Assembly: GCA_905178155.1 (NCBI GenBank)
Contig: CAJINV010000013.1
Location: forward strand, 2,236,281 to 2,300,280
Length of the DNA: 64,000 nt
Direction of reading: 5' to 3'
From: Amoebophrya sp. A120
Taxonomy: Eukaryota > Protista > Dinoflagellata
This document shows, one piece after another, positions 1 to 29,198 of the stretch (position 1 is the stretch's first letter; each line of letters begins with the position of its first letter). Below the pieces are notes generated by a model. It was given only the letters and a program-made list of their open reading frames with translations, did no database searches and was not told the origin of the DNA. The position numbers were made by a program, and so were the translations under genes.

Positions 1-117
1 GTAGAGACGAATGCTGATAAAGAATCAAGTTTCTTTTTCGTACATAATTCTCCCGATCATTTCATGAAAGCGCTGTATGTTCGAGGCGACGCGGAGCTTG
101 GCTTTTGTCAATTGATA

Positions 118-3342: not shown

Positions 3343-4928
3343 GGCTCGTGAAGAGGAGGCTGGCAGAGGGATGGTACGAGGTAGGGAGAAAAAAAAGACA
3401 GGAAACAGCAATCGAATATGGGTGTTTTTTCAGAGCTTGTTCTTTTTATTTTATTCAAATCCTTTCTGTTTTGTGTTTTTTCAAAAATTTAAAATTTTCA
3501 AAAATTAGGACTTTCAAATTTCGCCCCATTTATGTATTAACTATGGTCACACTTTGTGTATATGTGTGCATTTTTTTCAGGTTGAGTCCAGAGGTAGAGC
3601 CTATGGGATGTCATTTAGTGCATTTTTCATATTTTCAAAAATTGTTAAAAATTTGAAAAATTGCGTGTGTGGTAAATTTTCAGGAAACAAGAAACAAAAC
3701 CTGTAAAAAATTGATTTTGTTGGAGCATTGTGTCCTCCTATATTAATATTTATGGTGAATCTTCCGGGTGTGTGATATTTTATATGTTTCGTGAAAAAAT
3801 TTGAAAAGTGCCAAAAAAATGTGATTCCTAAGTTTTATGCTTCTAATAAGTATCTATCAGAAAAAGCTACATACTCAAGTCATGATTTGTAAGCTCTGTT
3901 GCTGCAGGTGCCAAATTTATCATATTTTGATAATTTTTTGAATTTTGGAAAAATGTGCAAAAATCTTGAAAAACTCACTGCGTGACCACAGCATTGAGAT
4001 ATCCAATCTGATAGGGAGCAAACAGACGCTAAACTCACTAAGTGAGTCCCTTTTCCTATCGACAGAACGCGACTACCTCTTTCCAGGTGGTATTTCCACT
4101 ATGTTGAAAACTTGAAAAACTGACTTTAATCTTGGCCCTGTTCCGGAATCCGGCGAAGAGGCCCGAGAGGGCATCTGAAAGGCTTCCGCAGTCCGGGGGT
4201 GGGGCCTATGACAGGCCCAACCGCCGCCCACTTGGTACAGGCGGGCGCACAGCCCCCGCACTCTCCGACATGCGCTTCTGGCCTGGTCCGTCGGGTGCGC
4301 AGCCCTTGCAGTGCCCCTGCTCGTTCCCTCCCCAAGGGCCCGCCCCTGTTTGCCCACCGATGTGCGCAGCCCCCGCCCTACGCGCCTCTGCAAGCGGGCC
4401 CCGCAAGCTGCGCAGACCCCGCAGTGGCCGCCCCCGCTGGTGGGGCCCGCGGCTCTTGTAGCCCGCCCGCGGTTGGCCCGCCGGGTGCGCAGCCAGCGAA
4501 AAGCGCACCCCGGCATGCGGGGCGGGTTTGCACTCGCTGCCCGCCCCCGCGGGGTTCGCGCGTCTTTTTTTTGACCAAGTAGGCAAGCCTTTTCTCTATC
4601 GCTTCAACGTCGGTAAAAATCCTCCCCCTCTCGCGTGCCATCTGCTTAGAGCTGCGAATTCGTAGTTTCCACCATTAGCCGGAGTGTCGGTTGCAGTAAA
4701 GACTTCGCGCATTAAAGATTTCGCCCAAACAATGTGTGCGAAAGAGCTCCGGACACATTGTCGGTTTCGTCCATGCAAAAGAGAAAGCGAGCGTCCTGTT
4801 TCTGGTACTCGTTAGTACGCGGTCTCGTCATTGATACTTCGGTTTGTTGACAGGCACTGCTTTAATACAGTCGGTCTGCACTAGCTGTTATCACTTCTTT
4901 ACCATCGGTTTGCCGAGTCGTTGTTTGC

Positions 4929-5180
4929 TTGTTGCTGGAATCTCGTACCCCGAATTAGAAAGCGATGGGTGGCTGGATCCACCTCGGAGGTTGAGTAATT
5001 ACTCGGTTTCATACGTATGGTGCCTTCTGCATTTTCTTTCGGTTCGTTTTTTTGCGCAACACGAAAAAGCTTCGCATTACGTACTGTTCTGAAAATCTTG
5101 AGTATATATGTAAAATCAGGACCTTACCCGACCTTCATCACTTTTCATAGACGCAGTGTAGTCCCACCAACGGAGCAAGG
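4929..5180 (+). repeat. Duplicated upstream block, copy 1
   Basis: Colinear similarity to 10637-10914 (ttgttgctgga, ccacctcgga, gagtaattac, actcggtttcat, gtagtcccaccaac). Confidence 0.85.
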
Positions 5181-5419
5181 CATTTTTATCTTGTCGGGCA
5201 GTTCATCAGACCAAAACTTAACACAACTACTTCATCCCCAATTGGCCCGGCGACCCCAAGCATCTGCGAACGGTTGACACGTCGGGAGTTTTCCCAACCT
5301 CGAATTTCCCGGCACAGCGTTGCTCGACCAACCACCTCGCGGCTGAAGAGAAGGACTAGTTCTGGCGCAACAAAACGCGCAGAATAAAGTAGCTCCGCTT
5401 CCGTGATCGACGACGTGCG

Positions 5420-8400: not shown

Positions 8401-8594
8401 AGACGCGCTTGGGTGGTGCGTCGGCAATGCAGACAAAAACGGGTGTGGGTGTAGTTTTCTGGAGGATAAAAGAGCAAGACTTGAAATTCAAAGAAATCCG
8501 AGACATGATTTCTCGTCAAAAAGTTGAAGCTGAAGTGGCAGCGGTCCAGAACGCGGCCCCCGCGGTGGGGGCCACCGGCTTTCTCGCGGCGTAG
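5420..8594 (+). CDS. Putative secreted coiled-coil protein, paralog 1 (multi-exon, structure partly unresolved)
   Basis: N-terminus MLVRFRFRRACLASG, AFLEKC motif, E/K/Q-rich helical exons (6400-6711, 7013-7084, 7850-8032, 8474-8594), ends GFLAA*. Resembles the gene at 11211. Confidence 0.6.
6712..7007. mobile_element. Degenerate introner (296 bp)
   Basis: tatggc...gccata termini; element plus 5 nt removal joins DLDDQ to ESVRERE in frame. Confidence 0.65.
7085..7438. mobile_element. Degenerate introner
   Basis: Left tatcaaat...aaaaaacacaccc versus right gggggtgttttttcagttcgata. Right end could be 7440. Confidence 0.5.
8033..8468. mobile_element. Degenerate introner (436 bp)
   Basis: TAT...ATA with cacaccc/gggtgtg inverted repeat; joins NTKQQ to QDLKFKE in frame. 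Confidence 0.5.
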
Positions 8595-8834
8595 TGCCGT
8601 GGTTGCGGCGGTAACGACATGACAAAAAAGGTATGACAGTGGACGTTTCGCCTGCATTGATTTGAAGGACACGTCTAGCGACAGAAACAAGTTGAGAAAT
8701 GTTGCTTCTGTACTGGATGCATCCACGCCCGCCAAGGCTGTAATGCCTTTTGGGCTTCGGCAACATGCTATGAGCATGCGAAACAAATACGGGGACAAAA
8801 GTGCTCATGACAAGTGTGGAGGGGATGTCCACTT

Positions 8835-10130
8835 TCATCGCAGGAAGAAATCGGGCAGGGCGTTGGCAGATCGTTATCGCATTGAAAAGCGCCCGCAAAC
8901 CCGAGGCCGGAAGCATTTGCATTTCAAAAGGTCTTTCCAGTAGAAACATTTACTTTTCTGTGTCTTCTAACAAGACAGATGCTGTATGCAGGAGACCGTA
9001 CGTGTCGATTTGTGTTGCACAAATGCCCATGCGTAAGCGCTGGCCTCGTCATTCCTGAACTGCCTGGTATGCCTGAACTGCCAGGCAAAGAGAGCCCTTG
9101 TGCTTTCATGCGAGACAAATGAGTCCATTCGGAAACTTTGCCGTGGAGACATTCCGCACTTCGGGGGCCGGGGCATTTTTCAGCGTGACAAAAGAGCTAT
9201 CTTTTTGTGCCGCAGCAGTCCTGTCTCAGTTTGAAGAAGTTGAAAAAATACCGCCACATCCTCTTTGGTCAAGTACGTTCTTGACTCATTCAAAAAATTG
9301 CCCAGCGTGGGTTTGGCCTGAGACGGCGTGTCGAGTTTTAACGTAACATCATCCAAGTTTGTTTTCCCATTAACGGTAATGAGACCGCTCAAGTCAACAT
9401 ACAAGAAAAATGGCACCGAGTTTGTTTCCCATTCAGTGCAGCCTGTGCTTACTCTTACTCATGTGGAACTTACGTCGGCAGGCTCCTTTTATTTCATTTA
9501 CTTCATCACTGACCATATAATTTCGAAAGTGAGAATTAAAATTTTTTTTGTGGCGGTCACCCTCGCGTCGTGTGTTTTCAGGCGAATAACGATCGGCAGG
9601 GGCAGCCACGGCAAAATTAATTGCGTAGTGCCCACAAGCTAGTAGTGAAAGACCGCTCACTTTGTTTTGTTGATTTTTACATTTCAGAACGTTTTTTGGT
9701 TTTTAATTTTACAACGTACATGCTGTCATTTTGGAGAACGGGTTATGCAACCACAAGTGATCTACTTTTCGTTTTTCCTTCTTAACAATCTCAAGCATTC
9801 AATCATTGAAAATGTAATCTCTCTGTAAGTAGCTTCCTTCATTTCCATCCCATTTGTATGTAGTAGTAAGGTCACGAGCGTTCCAATATACTTACTTCTT
9901 TCCGGTTCGACGAGCGCTCCGCAGGGTGGCCTTCCGCTTCCCTCGCGGCTCACAGACATCGAGGTCCACGTTTGCCGGTTTATTTATTTTTATCATGATG
10001 GCCGCCGAGACCGAGAGCAAGAAGACAAGGCCCTCTTCTTCGATGGTGTCGGAGGTGAGACTAACAAGTCTGACCTGATCGAAGTATTCGAACCTGCGCC
10101 CGTCACCACGAGGACAACTTCGAAGGACAC
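8835..10130 (-). CDS. Possible hypothetical protein (5' end unresolved)
   Basis: Protein-like minus-strand frames (RRFEYFDQVRLVSLTSDTIEEEG; LDDVTLKLDTP...RHKKIAL), a GTAAGT donor near 9895, and an in-frame end ANALPDFFLR* after removing 8875-9190 plus 5 nt. Confidence 0.3.
8875..9190. mobile_element. Introner family A, degenerate copy (316 bp)
   Basis: Left tatcgcattgaaaagcgccc and right ggggcatttttcagcgtgaca match family A TIR; interior agcatttg...ctttcc resembles the 51600 copy. Confidence 0.75.
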
Positions 10131-10636
10131 AACTGTCCCCGAAGGGAAAAAGCGCGGAGTCCCCAGTTGTGGCAGAAGGGCACGTCGCTGGCTTGACCCG
10201 TCTCGCTTGTTCTAATCAACACGAGAGGGGGACGTGGCAGTTGATATGCTTGCAGCACAATACTATCGTGATAATCAATCTTAACCTTGATGACCGCTAA
10301 AGAAAGGACGCTTTTACCAATGCACTTTAAGCGTCGGCGAGTTGCCGCCCCCCCTGTGCTGGGCCGTCTTGTCAGAGCTGGATTTTTGTTTTCTCCACTT
10401 GTCGGAGTGCTGTCGGTTGCTCAGCAAAGATTTCGCACAGCAAAGATTCGTGGGAAAGAGCACAGAGACACAGAAGGTCTTCGGTGTCGTCCATGCAGGA
10501 GAAAGCTCGGTGATATCTGGCGAAAAGTTGATCTCTTTCTGTTAGTCGGTTTGTTCTTCGTGAGGTGAAGAAAGGGCACTTCTTTACTGTCGGTTTTCCG
10601 CACCGGCCGTCGTGGTAAATCCTCTCACTGACTTGG

Positions 10637-10914
10637 TTGTTGCTGGAGTTGCGTAGCAGGAATTGATATAAAGCGATTGGGGGCTGGCCCCACCTCGGAA
10701 TTAGAGTAATTACCTACTCGGTTTCATTCGTACGGAGCTTTCCGCATTCTCTTTCGGTTTCTTCGCTTGCGGAACACTAAATTAAAAGCTTCGATGAGAG
10801 AACACTGTTCTGCAAATTTCACTACAACTTGCCATAAATCCGCAACCAGGGCCCCACCCGAAATTTTGACTTTTTCAAGTGATGTAAGTAGGGTAGTCCC
10901 ACCAACAGCAACAG
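10637..10914 (+). repeat. Duplicated upstream block, copy 2
   Basis: See 4929-5180. Confidence 0.85.
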
Positions 10915-11210
10915 AAGAGAATAATATCATTTTCGAAGCTGTAAAACAGTACTGAAAGACGTGGAACGAACTGTGACGCAGCGATATTGTTACGCAGGCA
11001 CCAACATTTCTCCGGTTTGTTTTTGTAACGTTTTTCAGCATTTGTTTCCCTCACAGGCCTGGAACCGAATCCAACCGCTGCTACCGATTCATAAGACGGC
11101 AGGTCCACGTCGAAAGCCGCTTTGCGACGAAACTATCGCGTTATACGGCCGATTGTTTTCACGACCCGCGTGGAAACACAAACCAGTTACATCCCACGAG
11201 GGCTTTTCCA

Positions 11211-14200
11211 ATGCGGGTGGGCTCAGGCATTCGCCGCGCCTGCCTGACCTCCGGCGTCGTCGCGAGTGGCCAACTTTTTATCCAGAATGCGCAAGCCGCA
11301 GAACAAGCAGCTGCGGTTTTGAAAACCAACACCGCAAGAACCCGCCGCCCCGCAGATGCCTCGACGGGGGAGAGTACGGAAAAAGCGGCCGCGCCTTCGC
11401 AAACCACGACCCCATGCGAAGCGGGTTGCGCAGATTCTGCTCATGCGGATACCCTGTGCAAAGAGAGAGATCCCCCCACGGGGCAAGCCCGGGAGTGGCT
11501 TTCTTATTTTTTGAGCCATGCGAAGGTCTCTGCACGTGAAAATTTCTGCCACGCAATCCTTTATATTTATGGCTGTCTACTGGTGTTCGACTCTCGCGTG
11601 GTCACTGCGTGGGAAAGTCGCGCTCAGGTGTTGGCATGGACGAGCCGCTGCAAACTAGGGCGTCCAACAAAACGTGCTTTATTGTTATTTAGCATGTGCC
11701 GCGGGAGTGGGGGGTCTTTCTCGGAGGATACGATGTGACGAATCGTTCTTGGAGAGGTGTGACTGCGACAAGGGTGCAGGAGTTGATCAGCAGAAACTCA
11801 AAGAGGTACATTTTGACAAGGTAGTTGCTCCGTATATAAGTCCCTTACCATGCGCGGCAATCTAAGCCTCCTCCAAGGGTTGAAATATAATGGAGGGGTG
11901 CGCAGGTATGCATAGAATGAGAAGATCCCAGCACCAAAGAGCCAGCATGACAAAGCCGAGAAACCAAAAGAAACGCTGCTGATTGTATTGGCATTCAGGC
12001 CCTTGGAGGAGACTATCCGCTTTGCTCATCCAAAATTTGTAATCCTGTGTGGTACTTTCCATGCCGGAGTCCATCATATACACACAACAGGCGCAGGATA
12101 TGAATTGCACGTGCAAGGATGTCGAGGTTTTCTGGAAAAAGGGGCGCGAGTCATCTGCAATGCTCATCTCCCCGCGCTGTGCATCCTGAAATATGTGCGC
12201 ACCGCACGCATTCATTCGGAAAACAGCGCAACTCGCCTTCTGTAATGCCGAAGCGGAGGCAAGCTACTTTGTTACACATACACTATACGCAGATACTCGC
12301 GCGTTAGGAATCATCACGGCAACATAGCAAATTAAAAAATTCTTTGCCACTCCTGTATATGGAAAGGATATTTCTAAGGCTACATTTGTGTGTGCAAGTC
12401 ATTTTCTTGTTTGCGGCTTATCTCTTTGGTATGACAGGAAAAAGCACACTACTGTACAGACGGGCAGAAGGAATTGCTAGCGAATGTGCAGCCCCATCAG
12501 AACCCCATAGCTCTTTTCCAAAGTGCGTTGAGTTGTGTACACATTTGAAATTGGGCCTCGAGACTGGTGCAGGGACACTTGGCCGGTGGCGTTGACCGAC
12601 CTTGCTCGCTGATGATGATGATGATGATGATGATGATGCCTATCATAACAGCAAAAATTCAAAACCTGAAATTCCTTTGTGAGCAGTTGTGTAGTAGTAG
12701 TTGTAGCGGGGAGTTTAGATAAGAAAAAAACCCGGTTTCCGTTCTTGCTTTTCTTGTCTCTTTAATCACCCCACTTGAGAAAGTTAAAGAACGTCCTCGG
12801 AAGGCAGCCGTCCCCGGAGCCTAGTATGCTTTTGGTAGCGGCACGTCTGTACTGCGCGGTACTGCGCTGCCCAAACGCTAAACCCTAAACCCATCCTCCA
12901 CTCCGAGGCGCCCGGGGACGGCGCTTTGTGGTCCTAAGTCTTCGAGCCACAGAAGTTACTTTCTGCATGGGACGAGGGGGGAATCATTTTCGACACACGA
13001 TAACAGCATTGCAGATGGCGCCGCATTCCTTTTTTCCGGGCATGCCGCCATCGTTACTTTCGTTTCATAAACTAGATGCTGAGGCGGCAAGGGGAAGCAG
13101 CGACGGAGCGGTCGCAGAGAGCCAACGCGAGGGACGCGCAAATGAAACAGGCGTCCGCGGTATCCTGTGTGAAAGTGTCCCCACCCCATAGTTGTCCTAC
13201 AATCCTGCATGCGTAAAACTAAAATGTGTCTCATGCGGAGCCTGATGAGACGCATTTTCTAGCGCTATTTTGAAACTTGTGATGCTCGAATCAGCATTGG
13301 ATGCTAGAATTGTAATGCTGCTGCACTAGCTAATGACGGTTGCACCGCGAGCCCAAACTTGCCATGCGCATCCGCCAAAGCTTGGCGATTTGTCTTGCAG
13401 AGTTCCCGACTTGGCTGCGGAGTGGGGACGTCTTTGCACAGGATGCGCGGACATGATTGCTTCGATTCAGCGGGCCAGGGATGAGCTCAGGAGCGCGCAC
13501 GAAAATATGAACTAGAAAATGACGACCCCTCCACCGGATATCGGGCTGTTTTGCCAGTTGTGCAGCCCCCGATGTACAATAGCTCGTCTTCTCTTGCCTT
13601 GCAAGTGGGAGAGGACCAGAGGCCAGCGGTCGAATCCTCAGCGGGTTCGACGAGATGGCAATGCGTACAAGATTTGTGTGGCCGCTTCTCCGCTGCTGCG
13701 AGTTCGAATCATGTATAGAAGAGGGCTGCTCTCTTAGTGGCAATGGCAAAAAGATTGGCTCACGAGATTCTTCCTTGTCGGCGGAAAACGTGTTCGTTTT
13801 CCGGGGGAGGGGGTTGGGTTTCAACGCGATACAAGAATCCGACGCCGAATTCGATGCGAACATGAAAGACTTCGAGGCGAAATATGCGGCATCGCTTCAA
13901 CAAGAAGCCGCTGCACAGAACGAATTTTTCACAAACGGCATACAAGACTTGAAGAAATTTCGAAAAGATTACCGCGCAGATAGGAATGCGCAGAACCAAA
14001 AGCAGAAGGAGGCCAACATGGAACAACTGCGGAATATCAAATGTGAGAGCAAGGCCTCCGTCCCCGCAGCGACCTGCTATATATCCCTGTTGCGAGGGTT
14101 GCGTGCGTATTTTCGCCTTGCATGGACTGAAGGCTCAAAGAACTACTTCCACTCTGTGGCGATTTGTAAAAAGTCGTGGCGTGGAGCCTCGCTCTGCTCT

Positions 14201-15038
14201 GGTCAGAAGCTTTTGACGCCCGGGTGTCGTGTTTCACCTTGGGCCTAGTCCGTGTGTCTGTCGTGCTTCTTCGCACACTTTGCTCATTTTTTTGCACCAC
14301 GGCGAGTCTTCTAAATGCATAGTGGCTGCACGACTCGCGGAATGGAACTTAGTCATGAGTCTGGTAATATAGAAATGGGGAGCGGTGGCGTATTTCTCCT
14401 TGATTGGGCAAATCAATGGCTTGGGCAAACCGGTAGCGGATGAGTTCGCGGGTAAGCTGCATTATGGAAGTGTTAGGTGGAAACATTGTCCGGATGGAAA
14501 TGACTACAGCGGTGCTCAGTCTAGTTCGATGAAATAGATCACAATGACGGGCTGTGCAAAAAAACCAACTTCTTTCAGCGCCGCAAGGCCAATTGGAATT
14601 TACCAATCATGTAGGCCGCCGCTGTTCATTTGGAAGTGGCGCTGTTTTGTTTTTGTACACTGGCGGGGCTGGGCGGATGGAGCCCTCTTGCCATGGCTCC
14701 GAGAATCCCAGCGGACGAGTGACCCTTCTTTTTATTGCAGTTTCAAACTACGGGTTGGCGCATGAGTTTGATTTCCATTCTGACAACTTTCCACCTGCCA
14801 CCTCCAAAACGATGCGCTCAATTTTTTCATGGACAAAATTTCCGCTGTGGAGGACGAGCGCTTTGACATGATGGTCGAACCCCGGCGCAGCGACGCGCAG
14901 CAAAGGAAGCTGGTCGAACTTGACGGACAACTGGCTGCTTTGCGGAAACAGCAAAAAGAACAAGAAGACGAAATTGCGCAGCACATCGGAAAGTTCTCCC
15001 GAGGCGGCGGCGGGAGCAGCAGCTTTCTCGCAGCCTAG
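11211..15038 (+). CDS. Putative secreted coiled-coil protein, paralog 2 (multi-exon, partly unresolved)
   Basis: MRVGSGIRRACLTSG...ESFLERCDC...MKQASADMIASIQRARDELRSAHE...SDAEFDANMKDFE...SSSFLAA*; exons joined by introner removal. Confidence 0.65.
11450..11730. mobile_element. Introner family D, degenerate (281 bp)
   Basis: taccctg...ccccccac / gtggggggtc...aggata; joins SAHA to DESFLERC in frame. Confidence 0.7.
12610..12638 (+). repeat. (TGA)n microsatellite
   Basis: About 9 copies of the trinucleotide. Confidence 0.9.
12825..13069. mobile_element. Possible degenerate introner
   Basis: tatg...tagcggcacg / catgccgcca...cata; joins QPSPEP to MLRRQG in frame. Confidence 0.4.
13161..13445. 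mobile_element. Introner family D (285 bp), TSD CGCGG
   Basis: Perfect 5-bp direct repeat; TIR tatcctgtg...gtccccac / gtggggac...cacaggatg; opposite orientation to the 62271 copy. Confidence 0.9.
13506..13831. mobile_element. Degenerate family A-like introner (326 bp)
   Basis: TAT...acccctcc / ggaggggg...ATA; flanks gaaaa/caaga; frame restored. Confidence 0.65.
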
Positions 15039-16903
15039 TTCGGCGGTCGCTTGACAGCTCTACTTATGTCGAAATGAAAACTGTGCCCAAGAACACTATG
15101 CAAATCTTTCTGAAGATGTACCGCGCAAAGAAGAATGCCGGCTGAGGAATTCGCAGTCCTCGTGTCTAGCTACACATGACGCATGCCACCGTCCTCTTTA
15201 CAACAGACCTGAAGCGCTATTTCGAAATTGCGAATATACCTGTCTAAGGTCGTGAAGGTGCGGAGTTATCTACCACACCAAAGGCTGATTGCGCCTCTCG
15301 TTGTAGCTTTGGGCATTTTAGTGCTATACTGGCGTATGTGTGTTGGGAGAGGTTTCATTTGGACAACTGCAGCATGGAAGAATGTTCAAACAAGTTCGTT
15401 GCGTCGAAGTTTTTTTTCACTGGCAGGCCCTACTCTCGCTCATACAAAACACCGTTCGGCCGCTGTATTTCTCTACTGTTTTCAGTATCAGTTTATTATT
15501 GTTTTCAGTTTACTTATTACTTTCTCAACCACTATTACCGTTCAACCGTGGACTGCAATTTTTCCGTCCAGGTCTGGTCAGGGATGACCTTCTACGTCCC
15601 TAGCTAGAGCAGGAATAGCACAGAAACTCGCTGAAGAGCGAGACTCGAGCGCACCCATGGAAGGACCAACCAATGCTCGCACAAAAGCAGATGATATCTA
15701 AAGACGTTTGTATTGTCCAATATTACCTATTAGTACATAAAGAGCACACTGTTAATGTTTGTTTACAACTCGGATTTTCTGCACGCAATTAATTTTCTAC
15801 TTCTGTTCCCGTTTAATGCTTTTACAGTTCGTTCACTGCCTCAAATTGAAGATCGTATCGCTTTATTCTTTCGTCTCTTCCACTCTAATAGCATTCAGCA
15901 TTTTGATCTTTCGCGACTCCTAATCACCAAGCTCCAATTTTGTCGGTTTTAGTTAGAATTATCATGATGGCCGTAGCTAACAAAAGCCGGGTCTTTCTTC
16001 AGTACTCTAACCGCTGGAAAGAAGTCCCTCGATCGAAAGACCTGCGCTACCAAGCTCCTCACACATAGTCTTTCCCGAGGAAGACAGAGCTGCTCGAGAG
16101 GGAGAAACAAGAAGGTGCTTCATCTGCTTTGCCTTGTGTAACAACGGATCTAGCTGATGTTGCGGCTATCATGATATTCTTCACTTGACCACCCAACAAA
16201 GACTTATGTATGATCTCCAGTATGTATCGCCAGCGCAGCGCCCTTTTTGCGCGCCGTTTTGTCTTCGATTTGATTTCCATTTTGAGTTCAGCTCGTTTGT
16301 CTATGGATCTTGGTTTTTAGTTGCTTGGATTCTTATCCATCGGACTCCGAGTCGCCGCATCTTGTTTCTTCTGAGTCTTCAGAGAGGAATATTCTTGTCG
16401 GTGCTTACATAGCGACACTACGCCACACTGCGGACGCTCAGCCACAGAGGTTGTCTTGGTCTCGACTGCGGTCGTGCAGGGCTTCGCTCAAACCTAGCGC
16501 GGTTTGCTGCGCAGCCTGTTTTTGATTTGGAAATGATCCCCACGGTAAAAGTAGAGTAGACCGCCTTTTCATCCTCGTGTTTGAGATTGCTCTTCCCCTA
16601 TAGAACGTCGTTTTCGTGCAAGAGCATCTTTTTGTGTGTATTGCAGCTTTGTTTTGAAGCCAGATCTGCGGAACTTTTGCTGCGTCCGGTGTAGTAACTA
16701 CACCGGACGCAGCAAAAGTTCCTTTTCAACAGGCATGCTTGGGAAAAAACTTTGCGTGAGCTGTGGACTCCAGATAGAATCTACAGCCAAAGCAGGCATA
16801 TTAAAGATTTCACACATACGTTTGACCAGATAAGAGTGATCGAGCGAAACCTAGAAGTGATCCACCTCATCGACAGCCAAGTAGCTGCGGGAAGACCAAG
16901 AGC

Positions 16904-19900
16904 ATGTCACCTGCTGAGCGTACTCCTGCAACCCAAGCCGGGCCACCGGTGCGCACGGTTCTTTGCTTGTACACGGGGGGCACGATTGGCATGCGTAAAA
17001 ATCCGGAAACCAATGTCGCGGAGCCGGTGCCGGGGTTTCTTTCGGACTGGGTGCAGAGTCTGCCTATGTTTCACGATGCGGAGTTTACGGCAGGCTTGGG
17101 ACGAAAATCTTCCAGCGCTTCTTCTTCGCCGGACCAGTCCAGCCCCTACCCTCGCAGCAAAAGCGTCTACAGGGCACCGGCCGTGAGAGGAACTACAATC
17201 GGGAGTACAACTTCTAGCAGTGTAGTTCTCGGTGATGGCAATCGGAAAAATGACCACGGCAGTGGTGCGGTACAGACTGCAACGAACGCCAGTGCAGCGA
17301 GGGAGATGAAGATGCAAAGATTTTTGGAGGAGCAGCAGAAAGTCGCTGGTGGCTCGACTTCGGAATCCCGAATAAATAAGGAACACGAAAAAGCTGCGCA
17401 CGACGACGAGCCCGAGCAGCGGCGCATGCCGCCTCGGGAGCTGATTTCGCCCTCGGTAAATTTTTTGTCGACAAACTTGGTCCATCCGCCTAGTGCTCCA
17501 CGGAGCCCGGGGAAGATGAAGTTGTCCTCTGCCGGAGACGAACAATTAGGGGACCGCGGTAATATATCTTCAATGCGACCACCGGGCGGGCAGCAGCCAC
17601 ACAGCTTGCCGTCCGCGGGTGGTGCTGCAGATCATGGCTCGCAGTTCGTTCCGCATTCTGCGTCGCACGAGCAGGCCAGCGAAAAGCGGCGCATTCACAC
17701 GACGTTGGTAGAGTACAACCCCCTGCTGGATAGCAGCAACTTCACGCACTTCATCTGGCAGGAGCTGGCGGAAGACATTTATGAAAACTACGAGCACTTC
17801 GACGGCTTCGTGATCCTGCACGGCACCGACACTATGGCCTTCACCGCAACCGCGTTAGCGTTCTTCTTCGCTATCAAAGGCAATAGGGAAACACGCGTCA
17901 CGCTGCTAGATAGTAACTATCGCTAAGTAGTAGACTGCTCACTACACGGAATCCTTGGAAAATTTCAGTCCTCGTAAAAACCAACTTGCGTTATTCTTGT
18001 GTCCACTTTTTCATCGCAGAAGGCAGTGGAGCGCCCGATGCCGCGCAGGACAATAATTGAGGACACCAATAATACGTATTCGCAGCGTGCTTTTGTCTTT
18101 GACAGAGGAAAGACTCAACAAGCCTGTGATCTTCACCGGGTCTCAGATCCCGATGGAGGAGCAAAGGAACGACGGCCTGATGAATTTCATCGGCGCACTG
18201 CAGCTCGCGGCCTTCTCGCGGATCGGCGAAGTCATGCTATGCGCTGGAAGTACGAGTCAACGTCTCAGCTTTTCAGTACAAATCCCTTGTGCGGTGGAAA
18301 TGCAGTGAATTAGAGTTAGCTTTCTGTGGTCCTACTGAAGCTTTCTATTTGATGCTGTTATGCAATGCAGCACTTGATTGCCAAGCCCGCACACGGCTGG
18401 AGGAGGTTGTTTCTTGTTCTTCGCTACAGAATTCTACTATGTACTTCCTGCTTGCGATGCATACCGCTTGTACTTTGACAATGTGCTTTACCGCGGGTGC
18501 CGCACGACCAAAGTTCACACGTCCTCCCCCCGGGCTTTTGACTCGCCAAACTTGCGGCCGCTGTGTATGGAAAGGAAAAGACGCCCCTCCCCATATCAAA
18601 ACGGAGTTTCTGATGCTGGATTTGTGTACACAAATCAGCTGTGTATTGCTGGAAGGCATTGCGGCCAGATACCCAGCCTAGGTAGAGGCGTTTGGCTCTA
18701 GTTGTTCAGCATGGCAAACGGCTCCGCTTTAGGCCCAACAGCATGACAAATCGCCTTGTCTTCTTGCAGCATAAATGTGATTTGTGACCTCAAATCAGCA
18801 GCACAAATCTTCGGAAACATGCCTTTTCAATATGGGGAGGGGGGATTTTTCTTTACGATGCTGTGTTTCGCGGGGATTCGGTACGCGTTCACGTCGGCTC
18901 TGCAGACCGGCGCGAAGAACAGAACGTTTGGGCTGACGTACGAAAATGGAAAAGTCGTTGCGGACCAACAAAAAAAGGAGGTGAACAGCACGACTTTATT
19001 CAGTGCGGACCAACAAAGCGAGGAGGGTGGTGCGAAGAGAAGGCGGACCTCGGGGCGCGTGAGTTCTGTGGCGGTGGTCGATCCGCCTCCTCCCGCTCCT
19101 TCTACCGATGGTACTGCAAGTAGTACGGGAGCTGCGCCGGCGCAAGAACCGCAAGTCGTATTGCCAACCGCCGGCGAAAATGCCTTCCATCAGCAAGACC
19201 TTCGCCTGCTGCCGCTGTTCGAGCCCCGGATCAGCATCCTGCGCATCTTCCCGGGCCTGTTCACGACCACGGCCGAGCTGATTCACGGACTGAAAGGACT
19301 GGTGCTGCAGACTTTTGGGGAGGGGAACGCGCCCAACAACCAGCCGTACCTGCTGAACACGCTGCGGGACGCCATCGAAAAGGAGCAGATCGTCGTGGTG
19401 AACGTGACCCAGTGCCTCAAGGGCGGCACGCCGGCCGGAAGTTACGCCACCGGGGCGGCGCTGACCAACATCGGGGTGTTGCCTGCCTACGATATGACGC
19501 CCGAGGCGGCGCTGGTGAAGTTGGGGTGGCTACTCGGCCTGTACCCGGAGCTCGAGGACCGGAAAAAGGATATGCAGTGGGCAAACCAGAACACAACGCG
19601 GGGATCGACTGCACTTAGACATTTATGGCAAAGTATGCATGTTTTTCAGGCGCGGAGTAGAGGCGTATGTGCATGAAGATGTGGCCACGTGTGTGAGGTA
19701 TGACCGATTTTCACCTGCTCGAGCGCTGCATCGGGCAAAGCAGATCTGGAAGTTTAGCAATTTTACTTTTTCGCCGGTTGTAGTCGTACTCGCAGTTCCT
19801 GTTCGTGTTGTCCTTTCCATATGCGTCAAGCAGCTCTTTCAGGAAGATTTGCGTGGAGAACTCACGCAGGTCTGGCAAACGAATGGACACCGAAACAGCC

Positions 19901-19923
19901 ATGTTGGCGGGGCGAAGTTGTGA
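16904..19923 (+). CDS. L-asparaginase type I (5 exons, all four introns non-canonical)
   Basis: Motifs LYTGGTIGM, PLLDSSN, GFVILHGTDTMA, KPVIFTGSQIP, YRGCRTTKV, AFDSPN, GLVLQTFGEGN, VVNVTQC, DMTPEAALVKL, DLRGELT. Long low-complexity insertions are present. Confidence 0.95.
17872..18104. mobile_element. Degenerate introner (233 bp)
   Basis: tatcaaaggcaa / ttgtctttgaca; removal gives ALAFFF(E)RLNKPV. Confidence 0.75.
18238..18463. mobile_element. Degenerate introner (226 bp)
   Basis: tatgc..ggaagtac / gtacttcc..gcata; removal gives GEVMLYFDN. Confidence 0.75.
18566..18860. mobile_element. Introner family A (295 bp), TSD CTGTG
   Basis: cccctccccatat / atatggggagggg; perfect TSD; removal gives NLRPLCFAGI. 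Confidence 0.9.
19571..19821. mobile_element. Degenerate introner (251 bp)
   Basis: tatgcagtgggcaa / ttgtcctttccata; removal gives RKK(V)KQLFQEDLRGELT. Confidence 0.75.
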
Positions 19924-21349
19924 CACTGGGGTGATGCAGCTGGGGGGATGATTGAAAAGAGAGTTTGTGTACATAGGGACATGTTGTATGTAGTGAGGTC
20001 ACGAACGTTCTAATCTAGCGATCTTTTTGCCAGTCATTACGCAAAACGACCGGCAGTTTTCAAGCGGCCGGAAGTGTTTTTGGGCATAAAAAATTTCCAA
20101 TTATCAAGCGGGCGGGGCTTTGCCGGCAAACAAGCCCGGTCGAAAACTATCGATCCCCGCTTGATAAAACGACGCAGGGGAGCCGGCAAAAGGGGCGCCC
20201 TTCTGAGGCGCCCACCGCCTTGGTTTCTGGCGGTTTGGGGCGCCCAAAAAGGGACGCCCAAAACGCAGCACTCCGAAAAAGACAGCGAATCCGCATAATA
20301 TGGGCCTCATTTTGGCCTACATTCGGGCCTCGCAAAATACGCCACCAAAATCCGCCACTTCAGAGGCGGACTGAAGGCCAGAAGATGCAGCATTTTGCCA
20401 AACAAAAACAAAAAAAGAAAGCCCGCCAAAAGCAAAAAGCCAATCCGCATGCTATGGGCCCGATTTGGGGCTCCCAAGGGTCCGACCCTGGCGCGGGCCC
20501 TGGCGGGGCCATAGCATGCGGGGAAGGTTTTTAAAATCGACACTAAATGGAGGCCAGCTCTGGAGTGAGATTTTTAGCGACTGCCGTGCCGTCGTGCATA
20601 ACATTACTCACGATGGCATGGCCGGCAGAGAAGTTGCGTCTTTTTTGGCGTGAAGACAAAAAGACCGCCATGACCTCACTACCTCCGCGGACGCGGCTAT
20701 TATTGGCAATAGGTCGAGACAAAGCGAAAGCCTTTTTTCTGCAGTGAGCCCGTATAATCGCCCCACATGAGTGGTTCATGGCCAAACTACACCCAGATTC
20801 TTAACACAGTTGCTTCTCGCACACGAGTGCGTCGATTCGGCACAAACACAAATATTTACCTGAAAGCAGAGGACAGGTGAGGTGGCGCGTTTTTCTTTCT
20901 GTTCTGTGGGGGGGCGACTTCTGCATCTGCTTGCAACCTTACGATCAAAAGCTTCGCCCGAGTCTCCGCTGCAGTATGCGATTTTTTTCTCATCTCGCGA
21001 GAGGTAGATGTCTGGGTTTTGTTTGCCGCCTTTTTAAAGAAACTCTGAGAGCGAGGACAATACGGATTCGTCGTTGTCGTTTTTTGAGTGACGAACGCCA
21101 GAGGAAAAGTCATATACATAAGGTAAAGTGATGCAACATGGGAGGACTTCTGTACGAGCATTTCGTACGAAAAAATCATTGTGTCATCACGATGTAAAAA
21201 TCCTACCCTGCTGGCGGCACTCCTGTTTCTTCACTAGCTGCCCCGATCCTCCCCGGCTGGCGAAAGACCGAGGGCTGCGAGTTTTACCGTTCAGACCGAG
21301 CGCGCCGGCGATCCAAATAAACTCCGCATTCAGCGTGCGAAATCACACC

Positions 21350-22714
21350 ATGCTGCGCGCGGCGTTGTCTTCCGTGCAGCCAAAAATCTTTTTCGGGATC
21401 GGGGGCGGGTCGGATGTGGATACGGCGGAACTCTTGGAGAAATACTCTCTGACCGTGCAAGAAAAACAATTTACTTCTTGCGAGGGAGCAAATGAAAGGG
21501 AAACTACCCTACCATCTAAAACCGCTAGCACACTGGTACTGCTTGCGCTGGGCGCGGGCGTGAAGGCAGACGGAACCTTTGATGCGGAGCAGACCAAGGC
21601 AAAGCAGCTGCAGCGGGGATTCACAGTTGTGGACGAGGCGTTTTGGGGAGCAGTGGCAGGTGCGAAAAGTAGTAGCGGAACAAGTCGTGGTTTGGGCAGC
21701 GATTTAGCAGATGAGGGAAAGAAGAAAGACTACAAACCACTACTGTACTCTGTCGTGAGGAACAAGGAAGTATCGTCAGAGACGGGCGCGGAGAACGAAG
21801 CTCCCCCACAAAACACAAACAACATTTTGGGTCTTGTTGTCGACCCCTGCTGTGCGGAAGAAAGCGCGATGATCTTTGCCGACCTTGTTACCTGGTTGCA
21901 GAAAGGCTTTTCGTCGCACACGACCTCACCGAATGTCCACGTCTTCGCCGTGGACACCGGTGGAGACGTCCTCGCCCCCCTGTTCGAGGAGAAAACCAGC
22001 GCCGATCTGTGTTTAAACGCGAAAATGTCCGCTTCATCAGACGAGGACGATCTGGAGCTGCGCGCGGTCCAGAATCCCACTCGCGACGTGGTCCTGGTGA
22101 GAGCCAACCAGCTGTATGTGCCCTTCGGGAGAGGGATGGGCGATCTGTCCTACCACCAGTTCGGGCCGGACAACTCGAAGCGCGACGAATACAGTCTGGA
22201 GCTGCTCGTTGCTGCCAAAAAGTTGCAACCGTTTTTCATGTCCCTTTGCGTGGTCGGGCCCGGCGCGGACGGGGAGTCGAGTGTGTTGGGTGTGAAAGAG
22301 ACTAGGGAGAAACTGTTCGGAGAACGACGAGATACGTACCTGACGGTGGAGTGCACGACGCTAGTACCGGCCCTTCTCTCCGAACATCCGGAAGAGCATT
22401 TTTCGAAAGTGGCAAAGTGGCGGGTCCCGGAGGAGGGTAAAACCCCTTGGATTATCCGCAAAGCGTGCGACCGGCTTGGTGGTCGGGTGGAAGATGAACA
22501 GGGAGAGAACTTCCACGTGGAAATAAAAGCAGAGATGAGGGAGCATCAAATCATCGCGTACCGGGGCAGGAAAATGCGGCGGACAGCCGGAGAGGAGAAA
22601 GACAGTTTATTTAAATGCGTTATGGACGCGGCGATGCTGCGGGAAGTGTGGTTTTTTGATGACAGGATGATCTTTAAACTGCTCGGGAAGGAAGCGATGG
22701 GGAAAGCGGAGTGA
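21350..22714 (+). CDS. DUF1152-like protein (intronless)
   Basis: Motifs FGIGGGSDV, AVDTGGDVL and VGPGADGE occur in the order I recall for DUF1152. Confidence 0.6.
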   Translation: MLRAALSSVQPKIFFGIGGGSDVDTAELLEKYSLTVQEKQFTSCEGANERETTLPSKTASTLVLLALGAGVKADGTFDAEQTKAKQLQRGFTVVDEAFWGAVAGAKSSSGTSRGLGSDLADEGKKKDYKPLLYSVVRNKEVSSETGAENEAPPQNTNNILGLVVDPCCAEESAMIFADLVTWLQKGFSSHTTSPNVHVFAVDTGGDVLAPLFEEKTSADLCLNAKMSASSDEDDLELRAVQNPTRDVVLVRANQLYVPFGRGMGDLSYHQFGPDNSKRDEYSLELLVAAKKLQPFFMSLCVVGPGADGESSVLGVKETREKLFGERRDTYLTVECTTLVPALLSEHPEEHFSKVAKWRVPEEGKTPWIIRKACDRLGGRVEDEQGENFHVEIKAEMREHQIIAYRGRKMRRTAGEEKDSLFKCVMDAAMLREVWFFDDRMIFKLLGKEAMGKAE

Positions 22715-23502
22715 GCGGCTTGTCAATTACATACAATATCCACGTACTAAAATGGACAGGTCGCGAGCTTGTAGTGAAGAAACTTCTAAGTGATCAAGTT
22801 GTGCAGCTAGTGTTGATCAACATTCACAACAAGAGGTGTTGGTCTGAAAATAATTGCACTAAAAGCCGAGATTTGCGGCTGAGCTACAGGATGCACGTCG
22901 AGGTAACGCCGCTCTCGTGCGTCGCGTTCGTGCGAAAAAGCAAATTGAGTCTCGAAATCTTTAGATCCACACGACCCGCAATAACATAAAAAGAGAAATC
23001 AATGCCGTCACATCAAGATCTGATCAGGGAAAAAGTGCAGGTTCTGAAAACGTGATTGTTTGCACGGAAGTTCACAACTCCCCCGATCCCAGACATTCTG
23101 TACGATCTGTTGTATCAGTCTTTGCGCTGTACTTTAGAAAGACGACCTGTCAGCAAGATCCAAATCACTTCTCTTGAGACATAGACACTAAATCGCCTGG
23201 AAGGCAGTTCTAAATCGTTCAAAATCGTCCACCGTGAAATTTAAAGATCCGAGAGGAGGTTCAACTGAAGATCTAAACCTTTACTTGAAGTTCGTAAATG
23301 TGGACTTCCGAAGCTCCACTATAGCGCCATGTCGAGGAGAGCACTGCTGCTACAGAACTATGTTCTCACCATGGAAGATCATCACTCCGACCACCTGAGC
23401 AATCCTTCTACGTTTTTTTTTCTATCCTCACAGGGAAAACACTTTTTACGGGTGTTTTAATCTACGGGTCTTAAGCGAAGTCGATTCAACACAAAACGCA
23501 AG

Positions 23503-24487
23503 ATGAAGGGAGGTTCCTTTGGTCGCGGCGCCAAGCTGCAGATGTCTCTGGGTTTGAACGTCGCCGCGCTGATCAACTGCGCCGACAACAGTGGAGCCCG
23601 CAACTTGTACATGATCGCCGCGAAAGGTATAATTGGCACTTTCTTTTTCGACTTTAGATTTGCATTTTCACGTCCTATCTTGTGGTGCTGGTTTGATGTC
23701 TGTGGCTCGTCAGTGCGCATGGAACTTTTATTCTGAAACTGCTTTCTGATATGTCGTAGCGCGATGAACCGATTTGGATTTAGAACATACAAGCCGAACA
23801 AATAACTCGTACGGCATGCCATTCTTATGGATGACTTGCGATCCACGCTAATTGAAAATTCCAGGTTGCGGTGCTCGTTTGAACCGTCTGCCGAAGGCCG
23901 GTCCGGGTGACATGATCCTGTGCTCCGTGAAGAAGGGGAAGCCAGAGCTCCGTAAGAAGGTCCTGCTCGCCGTCGTCGTGCGTCAGAAAAAGGTACATTG
24001 GTTTTTCTAATGTTTCAGCATTTGTATGTTTGCACCACTACTACCCACTTTCAGATTTGGTAAAGAGGGGCACCAGATGGGTTTTAAAACTTCTTGAGCG
24101 CGTACCTCCTTTGGAAGGAGGAACATCACGATATACGAGATCGTCTTCTACAGCGAAAAACACGCTCCATTCGGTTGCGAAGTTCCATAATTTTGCAAGA
24201 ATCTTCAAGTCGTCAAGACGTTTTCGCGGTTGTCTTGCCTGGAGCCATACTCATGACCTTATACACGTTGTTTCTTTCTCCACAACATACACATTCTATG
24301 TTTCATTCCAACAAAACAACAGGCGTGGCGCCGCAAGGAGGGTGTCTTCATCTACTTCGAAGACAACGCGGGCGTGATCGTGAACGAGAAGGGTGAGATG
24401 AAGGGATCCGCCGTCACCGGCCCGATCGCCAAGGAGTGCGCCGAAATCTGGCCCAAGGTTGCCTCCGCTGCCCCGGCTGTCTGCTAA
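23503..24487 (+). CDS. RPL23: 60S ribosomal protein L23 (uL14); exons 23503-23626, 23865-23992, 24323-24487
   Basis: [57 protein letters not shown]; two GT-AG introns. Confidence 0.98.
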
Positions 24488-25149
24488 GTTGTTTTGTCGC
24501 ATCTTCAATGTCTTTTTTGATCATGATATGGCAAAGCTGCTGGGAAAAGAAATTCTCTGTGGAAGGACGCTGTTCTCCAAAACTGTTCGCGACGCCTCGA
24601 GACTGCGCCTTCACAAATGAAACCTGTTTGAATCGACCAGATTAAGACTCACACCCTAGTAAAAAGAAACGCTTTCGAGAGGAAGCGACGGAGCGCAGGC
24701 GCCTCGTTGCTCTAGTAGCTTTGGTGGAGCAGGTGCTGTGTGGCATCTGGCTCTGCAGCCGGTGGGAATCCGTGTTCTGAGATCATATTATGCTGGAAAA
24801 TTCGTTCCCTGAGAGTGCGCTTTTGTTCCCCGCAGAATCATCCGTTTTTCGGTCTTGCAGAGGTACTCCGAATTCGAACGTGTCGCTGATCACTTTTGAA
24901 TATTTTCATCCCATTTTTGTTTCTTCTCGACGGAGCGAACACGAAGACGTGATATCATGTTAAATCCAGGAACCGCAACCCAGGCACATTTTTCGCCTTG
25001 CGCACTTCCCCGGGGCGGGACTTACCAGTAGAAAGATAGTAGGCCTCAGCACCAAAGCCACTCATGTCACACCTTGCGCAAATTTAAAGATATCGATTCG
25101 GTTTCAATTTCATCTTCTGTAACAACCCACAATTAAACCCGCGAAAACC

Positions 25150-26211
25150 ATGCTGCCTCAGCGTTCGTCGCAACTGCAAAAGGACTGGTTCCAGATCCTG
25201 ATTGGCCTGGTCTGGTTCACGGTCGTGCTGATCATGCTTTTGTCCAAAATGAAAGCGATCCAAGACGTGCTCCTACTCGCCTTTCTCTGCGGAGCCACGG
25301 CCGTGCAGAACGCCGAGCAGTTGGTGCCCTGGCTGGTGGCGGACAAAACGAAAAAGTTCGACAAAAATTTTATCGCCGTTCGGAAGCACGTGCGATTCGA
25401 ATGCCTGTATTCCTTTCTGATAACCTGGAGTTTGCTGGAGGTCGTACATCTGTGCGGCACGCGGTTGGAGACGGAAAGTTGGCTCTTTTTCGGCTGGACG
25501 TTCTGCCTCGTCACGAGTGTGTTGTACCACAGCGGCTTTAAACTTTTCGGACTTTCCAATGCCAACCAAACATGGCTCTTTAACCCTGTAATAACGCTGG
25601 CGCTGCTGCACGGAACGAAAAGCACGGGGAATTTGGTGATATCGGACATTCAGGCGCAGATCTACATCGGGTTCCAGGTATAGGATGGCAACTTCTCGCG
25701 ATTTTTGCATTCTATCGTGTACATGATGTCTGTAGAAGTTCGCGTTTTTTTTTCGCTTTTTTGAGTTCCGCCGAAGAACCATCGGCTCCATAAAAATTTC
25801 GCACGCGCACTTCAATTGCTCAAGCCTTTTCTCCAAACTAAGGTAACAGGCATGGTTCTCGGCCTTTTACTCCATTGTGTGCGGACTTCCGGCACCGATT
25901 ATCTGTCGCTCTTTCACACACTGGAACCAAATTTCCTCGCTGTCACAGAGCTCGTGATCGCCTGCGCAATCAGCTACCTTGTAGCCCGCATGCAGATAAC
26001 AGCGAGCGAGAAGGCGAAAGGTGAGGGGAGGCGAAATGTTATGAACAAAAACAGCGGCTTCGGCAGCGGAGTAGAGATGAGAAATTTTGCCAGTGTAGAT
26101 CATGCCGGGAACGGAACGACAGGGATAGAACCATCTTCCGTACAACTTCAAGGAGCGGGGAGCAGCGCAACTGTGATTCCTGGAACTAGTGAGGAGGCGA
26201 AAATTGACTAA
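25150..26211 (+). CDS. Multi-pass membrane protein, weak MIP/aquaporin-like segment; GT-AG intron 25678-25842
   Basis: Several hydrophobic helices; FNPVITLALL...YIGFQVTGMVLG resembles the first NPA region of MIP channels, but no second NPA is seen. Confidence 0.55.
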
Positions 26212-26899: not shown

Positions 26900-29198
26900 A
26901 TGCTGGCCTCTCTCCCGCTCCTGTCCCGGCAGGAGGTGCAGCACCAGTGCGAGGTGAAGGGGAAGAAGTGGATCATTGTGGACAACACGGTTCTCGATGT
27001 CGCACCGCTGATCAACGACAAGGATGGGGCGCACAAGGGTGGCAACGTCTTTGCGATCGGCCGGGACAACACACACCTGTTCCACGAACTGCACGCCAAC
27101 TTGCCAATCATGAAGTCCGCGCACCGGCCCGACTTGCCCTCCATCACCGCGCACATCTTCGAAAAGGTGCAGAAGCACGCGGTGGGAAAAATAGGAACCG
27201 GGTCCTCTGCCTCAACTACTTCCGACGTGCCTCTCATCTCCCCGAGCCACCGGTTCTGGCAGCCGTCGGAGCGACGGCCGCCGTTTTTGGAAAAGGTCAA
27301 GACCAGCATCGGGGATACAAACGTGGCCGCGGAGCTTGTAGCAAACGCAGTTGCCGGTTTGACGGACGTTCAGCTCCGCGCATTTTACGCGATTGTCGGG
27401 CTCCTGACCGCGGACGCCGCCGCGCAGCCGACGCACTGGAACTACAAAGTGACGTATTACCACCGAAATTTGAAGGACCTAAACCGGTTTGAAACCCCGG
27501 AGTTCTTGTGCCCCAGTCAGAACCAGTACTACGAAGTGCCCTGCGGGTCCAACAGCTGTTTCGGTGACCAGGCCTTCGTGATTCTGGAATCCATGGCGAG
27601 GTGCGGGAAACTGGAAGTGGACGATTTGGTGAAACAACACGTGCTCGCGTTCGGACCGAACACGAGCAACTACGGCCCGCTCGGGAACACAAACGTCCAA
27701 TCCGCGTATCCTGCTGCAAAAACGTGTTTGTCCCCGACTTTTGAGGTTTGCGTTTTGTCATGCGCCTGCGCATGATGTGGAAGAGAGCCACTTATTTCCA
27801 CTCGTGCTTTGTCGTGCTGTGCAGATATGCAGAAACAACTCGCTTTATGTATTGCGGCCGTCCTGGCTGCGCCTGCGTACGGTTACGCGTGACACTGCGC
27901 TACAATTGTCTACCCCAGCTTCCTGATGTGTGGCAGAAAGCGTGCCGCAATACTTGCCTCGGGGGTGTGTGCGTTTTCACTCAGGATACCGTGGGCGATT
28001 TACCGATCCGCGGGCCGTGGCGACACGGCAGCTTGGATAAGTTTCTGCGGAATGTGACGATCTTGGGGAAGAAATTTCCCACCTGCGGGTCGAATGACGG
28101 AAGCTCGGACTGCTTCATTCGGGCGGTTCCGGTTGTTGCGCTCCACGCCGGGAGGGAAGACTATGAGAGTGCATAATCATCCCCCTTTCCTCTCGTCGTG
28201 TTTACAAACAAACGCATGAAGAGGACCAGCAACACAAGCAACGACAGAAATGTGGCCTCTGCGTGACAAATCCGCGCAGGGTTTGTTGTACTGTCTGAGT
28301 TCCGGATGTTCATGTTCTTGATGCAGACAGTCATCATCGGGAATGAATACTTATCTGCGTTTGGTAATAGTTTTGCACAACACAAATGAGGCGGACGGGA
28401 AGGGTTTTTTTGCTCTTTCATACCGACATGCTGGAGCAAGTGGCGGCGGTCGTTCGCATCACCCAGAACAATGCGCTCACCGTCGCGTACGCTTGCGCGG
28501 CCGCGCGGATTTTGGAGCAGATCATTCTTTTTGGATCCACGGGAAATCAGGCCGTGAAGCACTGCGCCGACGCGCTGCTGTCCACTTCGGCCGGACAAAG
28601 CAGAACAAGTCAGAGGGCGAGAGCCAGTTCCGGGTTGGATTCCGAGATTGGCGAGCAACTTGTCGAGCTGGAGGAGCAGCTGAGCGACATGCCTTACCTG
28701 GACGGCGTGCGCGCCTACTCCGGCGGGCAATACAACGCCGTGACCGTGAGCTGAGGACTGCCCAACTCGTTTTTGTTGCCGTGTTTGCGGGTCACGAACG
28801 ACACCGTCGTTCGAGCTGATAGAAGTACTGGTTCGCTTGATGGAGCAGAAGGGGTAGAAGTTTCAGTGCAAAAATTGCGTCGAAAAGCCACTGCTACTTC
28901 TTCTTCCGCTTCCCCTTCGCTCGTCTCTGGAGAGGATTTGTTGCAGGCGAAACTACTTCGCGAGAAGCTGCAAAAAGGCAACCGAGAAATTCATTTCGCA
29001 GACGCGGTGCGTCAAGCCATGCTGGCGGGCGGCTGATCCGCATCGCGGTGCGGGCTCGTTGGCGCCTGCTATGGCGCTGCTGCGGGAACGCTTGGGGGAG
29101 GTAACGGTCTTTTCCCCGTTCCACTTGACTGGATCGCACAGGTGCGCGACGGAAAAAAAATGTTGGAACTTGCGCGGGTGCTGGTGCTGCTGCGGTAG
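26900..29198 (+). CDS. SELENOJ: Cytochrome b5 domain fused to selenoprotein J / crystallin J1-like ADP-ribosylglycohydrolase; two in-frame TGA (28752, 29034)
   Basis: b5 motifs WIIVDNTVLDV, HKGG, GRDNTHLFHELH. SelJ-like motifs ADAAAQPTHWNY, GDQAFVILES, LPIRGPWRH, VRITQNN, VS*GLPNSF, AGG*SASR, GACYGA, PLDWI; frame runs to TAG 29196-29198. Confidence 0.88.
27707..27988. mobile_element. Introner family D (282 bp), TSD CCG(C/T)G
   Basis: tatcctg...aaaacg / cgtttt..caggata; removal gives NVQS(A/V)GDLPIRGPWRH. Confidence 0.88.
28162..28422. mobile_element. Degenerate introner (261 bp)
   Basis: tatgagagtgca / tgctctttcata; flanks aagac/ccgac; removal gives HAGREDMLEQV. Confidence 0.8.

Follow-up and report, generated by a model that had tools for sequence, protein, structure and literature searches.

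Introner elements of Amoebophrya sp. A120 and A25 were described by Farhat et al. in 2021 (PMC7789003), and non-GT-AG introns exceed 60% in both genomes. The A120 elements form repeated families, their inverted repeat (IR) starts with TAT, and direct repeats of 3–5 nt lie at the boundaries, the text of that paper placing the commonest of them four nucleotides before the IR and no more than two after it; the A25 repeat begins with TTA. The accessible part of the same paper describes A120 splicing as being without a clear signature, with sites that are variable relative to the hairpin, and derives the A120 gene models from transcript alignments. It also reports that nearly all spliceosomal proteins are present, that U1 was not found in A120, and that A25 and A120 yielded no U11, U12, U4atac, or U6atac. 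Its Table S4 gives GT-AC, CT-AG, AT-AG, GT-CG, GT-AA, CT-AC, AT-AT, AT-AC, and TT-AG as the nine top non-canonical classes of A120, and the nine top classes of A25 are all TT-NN. AT5 and the Karlodinium strain retain GT-AG.

Comparable introns occur in other lineages. The MITE-derived introns of Fritillaria borealis resemble those of A120 in possessing a TIR and TSD, in being non-GT-AG, and in dominating the genome, and their removal has been attributed to the U2-type spliceosome (PMC11282704, PMC13326754). Nonconventional introns of euglenids and hemistasiids share with A120 an offset terminal stem, junction repeats, and variable end dinucleotides (PMC11282704, PMC11170887, PMC12621601). Introners of algae and core dinoflagellates likewise have splice sites within or beside the TSDs and leave a restored mRNA; their GY and AG sites, carried along or recruited, are near-canonical (PMC9860276), whereas the A120 elements need neither, so that the insertion site of the latter appears unconstrained. 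A branch A at a fixed distance has been described for Entamoeba invadens (−8), diplomonads, parabasalids, and some yeasts (10.1101/2022.06.08.495308).

The stretch of DNA analyzed here (64,000 nt, hereafter the window) carries genes that match named A120 proteins with 100% identity, namely an asparaginase-like gene, whose exon 16907–17869 corresponds to the 664-aa protein P0001, and two others; a fourth gene matches protein P0123, also at 100%. The window introns and the A120 introners thus share the host and the elements, including the TAT-starting IR, the boundary repeats, and the families. Three or four of the first four TSD bases are kept over the boundaries in 13 of 29 non-GT-AG introns, and the repeat is decayed in the other 16. 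Families with 68–86% identity were found within the window, and the older introns are without any copy in it. A metagenome scan gave one distant locus (L001, 33% identity), and Rfam scans of window positions 1–16900 and 35300–64000 gave no hits. The elements are already known; what is added here is a fixed cut register together with an invariant A at −7. Whereas variable sites and no signature are reported in the accessible part of PMC7789003, one register fits all 29 window introns, with T at +2, A at +3, and A at −7 invariant. Neither the register nor the −7A was found stated for Amoebophrya in the literature searched, although Figures 3 and S19–S23 of PMC7789003 may show part of it, and the accessible texts of PMC12130899, PMC9860276, PMC12005148, and PMC11453091 do not give a fixed register for these introns.

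The original prediction held that the intron probably runs as N-TAT...ATA-NNNN, with the cut inside the TSD. A fixed 4+1 cut in the transposon-derived introns was confirmed, in which the cut lies, almost certainly, one base 5′ of TAT and four bases past the end of the element. The mRNA therefore retains four TSD bases from the left copy and one from the right, which restores the target. This register is compatible with 29/29 non-GT-AG introns, compared with 21/29 for 5+0 and 19/29 for 3+2. Twelve of these introns were taken from transcript-like contigs and 17 from deposited proteins. The latter comprise 4 in the asparaginase-like gene (P0001), 7 in P0121, and 6 in P0123, all of which allow 4+1 at codon-level resolution; they are not independent of RNA data because the A120 annotation is itself transcript-based.

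The contig junctions came from two runs, X1 and X4, covering 6000–25900, which are RNA only by guess. They gave 26 joints, of which 15 were listed, 11 of these 15 being flagged as "between: not known". The 15 consist of two GT-AG introns, 11 TIR introns, one composite (11806–13074), and one misfit (11307–11743). Raw-read runs X8 and X9 over the same stretch covered 1 and 2 of 30 bins, respectively. The principal junctions, together with those in two further genes, are as follows.

6711–7011, plus strand: TIR intron with a GT donor and a non-AG acceptor, uniquely 4+1 (joint 6710–7012, unambiguous in X1 and X4).
7495–7867, plus strand: TIR intron G-TAT...ACA-AGAA, uniquely 4+1 (joint 7494–7868).
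11449–11734, plus strand: TIR intron A-TAC...ATA-CGAT, uniquely 4+1 (joint 11448–11735).
12091–12097, plus strand: 7-nt micro-exon, deduced from 6 letters between the sides of joint 11806–13074.
13505–13835, plus strand: TIR intron (13506 in the original prediction), 4+1 or 5+0 (joint 13504–13836).
15064–15369, plus strand: TIR intron of a 3′ UTR with its stem slipped by 2 nt (unique joint 15063–15370, X1 and X4).
47420–52713, plus strand: six non-GT-AG introns at 47420, 47885, 48179, 49145, 51599, and 52448 in a long WD40-like gene (P0123), all compatible with 4+1.
59590–62916, plus strand: seven TIR introns in the gene of P0121 (Pfam PF00982, PF02358), which we take to be trehalose-phosphate synthase, all compatible with 4+1.

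All 12 RNA junctions fit 4+1, as compared with 7 for 5+0, 3 for 3+2, and 1 for 0+5. Four of them are unambiguous (6711, 7495, 11449, and 15064), and each permits 4+1 only. The chance that 12/12 junctions would fit T+2/A+3/A−7 within their ambiguity was approximately 1e-21 by simulation, where A−7 was chosen after seeing the data. Among the sites whose cDNA junctions had been proposed for inspection, 6712 and 11450 were thus placed uniquely at 4+1 by the contigs. The flanks predicted for 11450 (gcgga/cgatg) are correct, while a slightly better fit of 3+2 at 13506 did not hold, since the contigs allow 4+1 or 5+0 there and exclude 3+2. As a general register, 3+2 was rejected, as it fits only 3/12 RNA junctions and is excluded at 13506 and at asparaginase intron 2. 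On the same 12 junctions, cutting right at the TIR ends was rejected as well (5+0, 7/12; 0+5, 1/12).

The micro-exon 12091–12097 sits between GT-AG intron 11806–12090 and a 976-nt TIR intron (12098–13073), and the ORF stays open across it. Joined at the RNA junctions, the sequence reads through two ORFs without interruption (253 and 311 aa), each with FLAA at its end. These belong to two weakly similar genes, 6362–8592 and approximately 11211–15039, which contain several old TIR introns each, and some of these introns may share ancestry. Contig depth over the pair is high in X1 and low in X4, and loose ends suggest further paralogs elsewhere. The upstream regions 4925–5074 and 10633–10793 share approximately 160 nt at 76% identity. 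Joint 11307–11743 fits no rule and was left out of the 29; it probably derives from a paralog transcript, since loose ends occur in X1 at 11280 and 11772, the former resembling a diverged copy of the local sequence.

That joint, the guessed RNA nature of X1 and X4, and the lack of a DNA control would fit removal of the elements from the DNA itself in some members of the population, or joints that are artefacts of assembly or paralogs. The same contigs nevertheless skip GT-AG introns, with a depth range of more than 100-fold that follows the genes, TSD-decayed elements are cut at the same register, and the deposited transcript-based proteins agree, so that this explanation is very hard to credit.

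The original prediction further proposed TIR introns at 27707, 34841, and 40962. The sequences at 27707 and 34841 fit the pattern. At 40962, the intron that follows from deposited protein P0273 is of the ordinary GT-AG type (40961–41099), and a single TIR intron at 40962–41733 was rejected, as P0273 shows three GT-AG introns there and 40962 is a GTAT donor. The GT-AG introns of 40961–41703 are A-rich near the 3′ end. In the plus-strand region 26900–29198, removal of introns 27706–27992 and 28161–28426 by the 4+1 cut leaves a 581-codon frame to TAG that contains two in-frame TGA codons, at 28752 (VS*GLP) and 29034 (GG*SASR). Its product is likely a two-selenocysteine protein, as predicted from this frame, and may be SelJ-like. 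Near-perfect palindromes of approximately 50 nt lie at 16670–16722 and 38209–38259, the second inside a probable GT-AG intron. At approximately 2260–2637, a GGGCAGGGGA tandem repeat runs into a 705-base assembly gap (2638–3342).

For the asparaginase-like gene, the deposited 664-aa P0001 was mapped and every cut was translated, which gave the following structure.

16904–17870, plus strand: exon 1, coding part (P0001 residues 1–322 exact; an X4 piece ends at 17869).
17871–18108, plus strand: intron 1, C-TAT...ACA-GAGG (P0001), TSD decayed (1 of 5), with 10/12 pairs at +5 to +16.
18109–18236, plus strand: exon 2 (P0001).
18237–18467, plus strand: intron 2, C-TAT...ATA-CCGC (P0001 GEVMLYFD).
18468–18564, plus strand: exon 3 (P0001).
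18565–18864, plus strand: intron 3, G-TAT...ATG-CTGT, perfect TSD ctgtg (P0001; an X4 piece starts at 18860).
18865–19569, plus strand: exon 4 (P0001; X4 piece 18860–19568).
19570–19825, plus strand: intron 4, A-TAT...ATA-TGCG (P0001 RKKVKQLF).
19826–19923, plus strand: last exon to the stop codon (P0001).

None of the 15 joints listed among the 26 falls in this gene, where X4 pieces end at 17869, 18860, and 19568. The flanks predicted for intron 1 (ttcgc/gagga) and intron 4 (aagga/tgcgt) are correct. It had been argued that F-E-R-L-N-K-P at intron 1 requires a cut inside the TSD, and FFFERLNKP in P0001 indeed allows only 3+2 or 4+1. At intron 2, GEVMLYFD allows 4+1 or a cut further right, as 3+2 would read VIL. 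Intron 3, whose ends are related to those of other copies in the window, has a perfect TSD, and its register is uninformative. At intron 4, RKKVKQLF allows 3+2 or 4+1; the V of K-V-K-Q-L-F expected there is borne out by the deposited protein but not by homologs, which have K in 96/119 and were hence set aside as proof of this residue. With 5+0 ruled out by introns 1 and 4 and 3+2 by intron 2, the four introns have 4+1 alone in common. A repeated element lies just 3′ of the gene (19986–20640), to which many contigs and a few X8 and X9 raw reads match at 90–95%.

Aligned at the 4+1 register, the 29 introns have A (13), G (7), C (5), or T (4) at +1, followed by T at +2 and A at +3 in 29/29 and T at +4 in 28/29, with the element starting with TAT in 28 and TAC in one. 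The N-TA(T) donor was therefore as predicted. T at +2 is also found in 9/9 top A120 classes of Table S4 in PMC7789003 as read here, a genome-scale agreement. All 14 GT-AG introns of the window start with GTA (GTAT, 6; GTAC, 5; GTAA, 3), and the six donors cited earlier as ordinary are all GTAT. At the 3′ end, −1 to −4 are free, −5 is A in 25/29, −6 is T in 24/29, and −7 is A in 29/29, this being the sole invariant base among the last 16 nt. A strict ATA end does not hold, since ATA (20) is accompanied by ACA (4), ATG (2), ATT (2), and AAA (1), and only its first A is invariant. At 11449, where +4 is C, −7 is still A. The invariance at −7 compares with 9 changes in 58 at −5/−6 (Fisher p = 0.026). 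In the GT-AG introns, A occupies −7 in 8/14 (p = 0.03 against 0.30); its absence from the other six led us to reject A at −7 as a universal rule. A is the commonest base at −10 to −7 of these 14, in place of a pyrimidine tract.

Known spliceosomes employ a G-G contact between the intron ends. By contrast, the +1/−1 combinations of the 29 introns are scattered, which counts against a spliceosome, with GT at the 5′ end in 7/29, AG at the 3′ end in 3/29, and GT-AG in 0/29. Another AG is present within 15 nt of the 3′ end in 21/29 and is passed over, in agreement with the AG-independent acceptor postulated earlier. The GT-donor introns with unique junctions, 6711 and 7495, skip an AG located 2–3 nt away; at 6711, the GT donor is joined to a TT end despite an in-frame AG 3 nt upstream.

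The end-to-end stem was evaluated in the 16 introns in which no more than two of the first four TSD positions match, a group defined by this low match whose members may never have had a TSD. Their matches total 16/64, which is chance level. Pairing between their arms persists, with 106/192 Watson–Crick pairs at +5 to +16, peaking at offset 0 (44–68 elsewhere), and swapping of the 3′ ends among them never reached 106 in 20000 permutations (p < 1/20000). Duplexes of an intron's own ends averaged −21.8 kcal/mol as compared with −13.0 kcal/mol for swapped ends, and GT-AG introns exhibited no excess end pairing. The persistence of pairing in TSD-decayed introns points to selection on pairing. In the 29 introns, the best ungapped stem is at offset 0 in 26. 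Members of three families lie either way round in plus-strand genes and are removed in each case, which indicates that a strand-specific internal signal is not needed.

The two outer stem pairs changed unequally: 0 changes were counted on the 5′ arm (+2/+3) versus 9 on the 3′ arm (−5/−6), 7 of them to non-pairs (binomial p = 0.004). As all nine changes are on the 3′ arm, U+2 and A+3 are kept as sequence rather than as pairs, which fits the earlier suggestion that +2T/+3A are read as a donor. The related suggestion that the stem positions the acceptor stood in part. The stem is kept in old introns, but in 15064–15369 the best pairing is at offset +2 (12 versus 4 pairs), and X1 and X4 cut this intron with ACA at −7 to −5, that is, the cut follows −7A and not the slipped stem. 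In this single intron, sequence wins over stem.

These observations bear on whether a spliceosome is involved at all. The same 4+1 cut beside the TIR stem could be made by a nuclease and ligase guided by structure, a mechanism suggested for euglenozoan introns (PMC11282704, PMC12621601, PMC11170887), with U+4:A−7 as a required pair and not a branch. Pairing that outlasts the TSD, the predominance of offset 0, free bases at both ends, elements that work either way round, and the U1 not found in A120 (PMC7789003) are all in keeping with it, as are euglenid introns with offset terminal stems, which leave as circles (PMC11282704). Speaking against it are +2T/+3A, kept as sequence while their partners drift and matching 14/14 GT-AG donors, and the off-stem cut at 15064. 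Three introns with P(+4:−7) near 0 keep both bases, and in full-length folds hardly any end-to-end pairing is predicted for two of them, 8032 and 13505; the spliceosomal proteins are moreover nearly all present (PMC7789003). The euglenid consensus, CAG at +4 to +6 paired with CTG at −8 to −6, occurs in 0/29 window introns, and euglenid introns have no donor core in common with canonical introns and exit as circles, whereas the A120 introns share the GTA-type core. Removal by a nuclease and ligase is accordingly regarded as unlikely.

The U12 donor core is RTATCC, and U12 introns tolerate other end bases. A transformed minor spliceosome would thus suit the free ends, and RTATCC starts 3/29 introns, with CCTTRAY in the last 40 nt of 2/29; in Physarum, new U12 introns often have short inverted repeats (PMC11282704). 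The remaining 26/29 are without RTATCC, +5 is G in 10/29, and U11, U12, U4atac, and U6atac are those not found in the accessible account of A25 and A120 (PMC7789003), which makes a U12-type removal improbable.

We consider it likely that the spliceosome removes these introns, and moderately probable that a fixed cut N-TA(T)...A-NN-NNNN is made by a major spliceosome so modified that it disregards the two end bases and reads the transposon end in their place. The stem would define the intron, its left arm giving U-A-U and its right arm the branch A seven bases from the end. The two TIR arms would pair and join the ends, perhaps standing in for U1. The stem would then open, and U+2, A+3, and U+4 would be recognized as ordinary GTA donors are, with U6 as the probable reader; PMC13326754 discusses the pairing of U at +4 with the ACAGAGA box of U6. 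The −7A would be the most likely branch nucleotide, and the acceptor would be set by the distance from it without AG. As both arms carry signals, a copy would work in either orientation.

A branch point at −7A itself is a serious candidate that falls short of being probable. Group II introns have a branch-to-end distance of 7–8 nt, which parallels this position. Predicted folds of young copies have −7A completely paired to U+4, so that no bulged A is formed unless the stem is unwound, and YTRAY surrounds this A in only 7/29. Since U+4 is nearly as invariant (28/29), U+4:A−7 could simply be a required base pair. Fixed-branch-point introns of the Entamoeba type end in AG. They also have a strong AYURAY-like motif (10.1101/2022.06.08.495308), whereas A120 has a weak motif, no AG, and a putative branch A.

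The weak U2 complementarity at −7 and the burial of −7A in the predicted stem would also agree with a spliceosome that reads the N-UAU donor and branches elsewhere, with the base of the stem, or a protein binding the 3′ arm, setting the acceptor; in F. borealis, non-AG ends are handled by divergent U2AF paralogs (PMC13326754). This is rather unlikely, as removal in both orientations makes a strand-specific internal branch site unnecessary and −7A alone is invariant in the last 16 nt. F. borealis retains U1 and has mainly AG-AC and AG-AT ends, as far as the accessible sources go (PMC11282704, PMC13326754), in contrast to the free end bases, the canonical +2T/+3A, and the U1 not found in A120.

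Returning to the modified major spliceosome with −7A as its putative branch, we tentatively propose that it has lost the requirement for U1, G+1, and AG, and that the TIR is the whole intron signal. TAT...ATA with a 5-bp TSD would then make an intron anywhere and in either orientation, and the TTA of A25 would be an independent solution to the +2T/+3A rule. A single rule makes the non-GT-AG introns predictable and ambiguous junctions re-annotatable, and it names three nucleotides and one stem as testable signals. If the spliceosome is responsible, it works without two end contacts that were thought to be central, which would explain the large-scale invasion of exons by these transposons.
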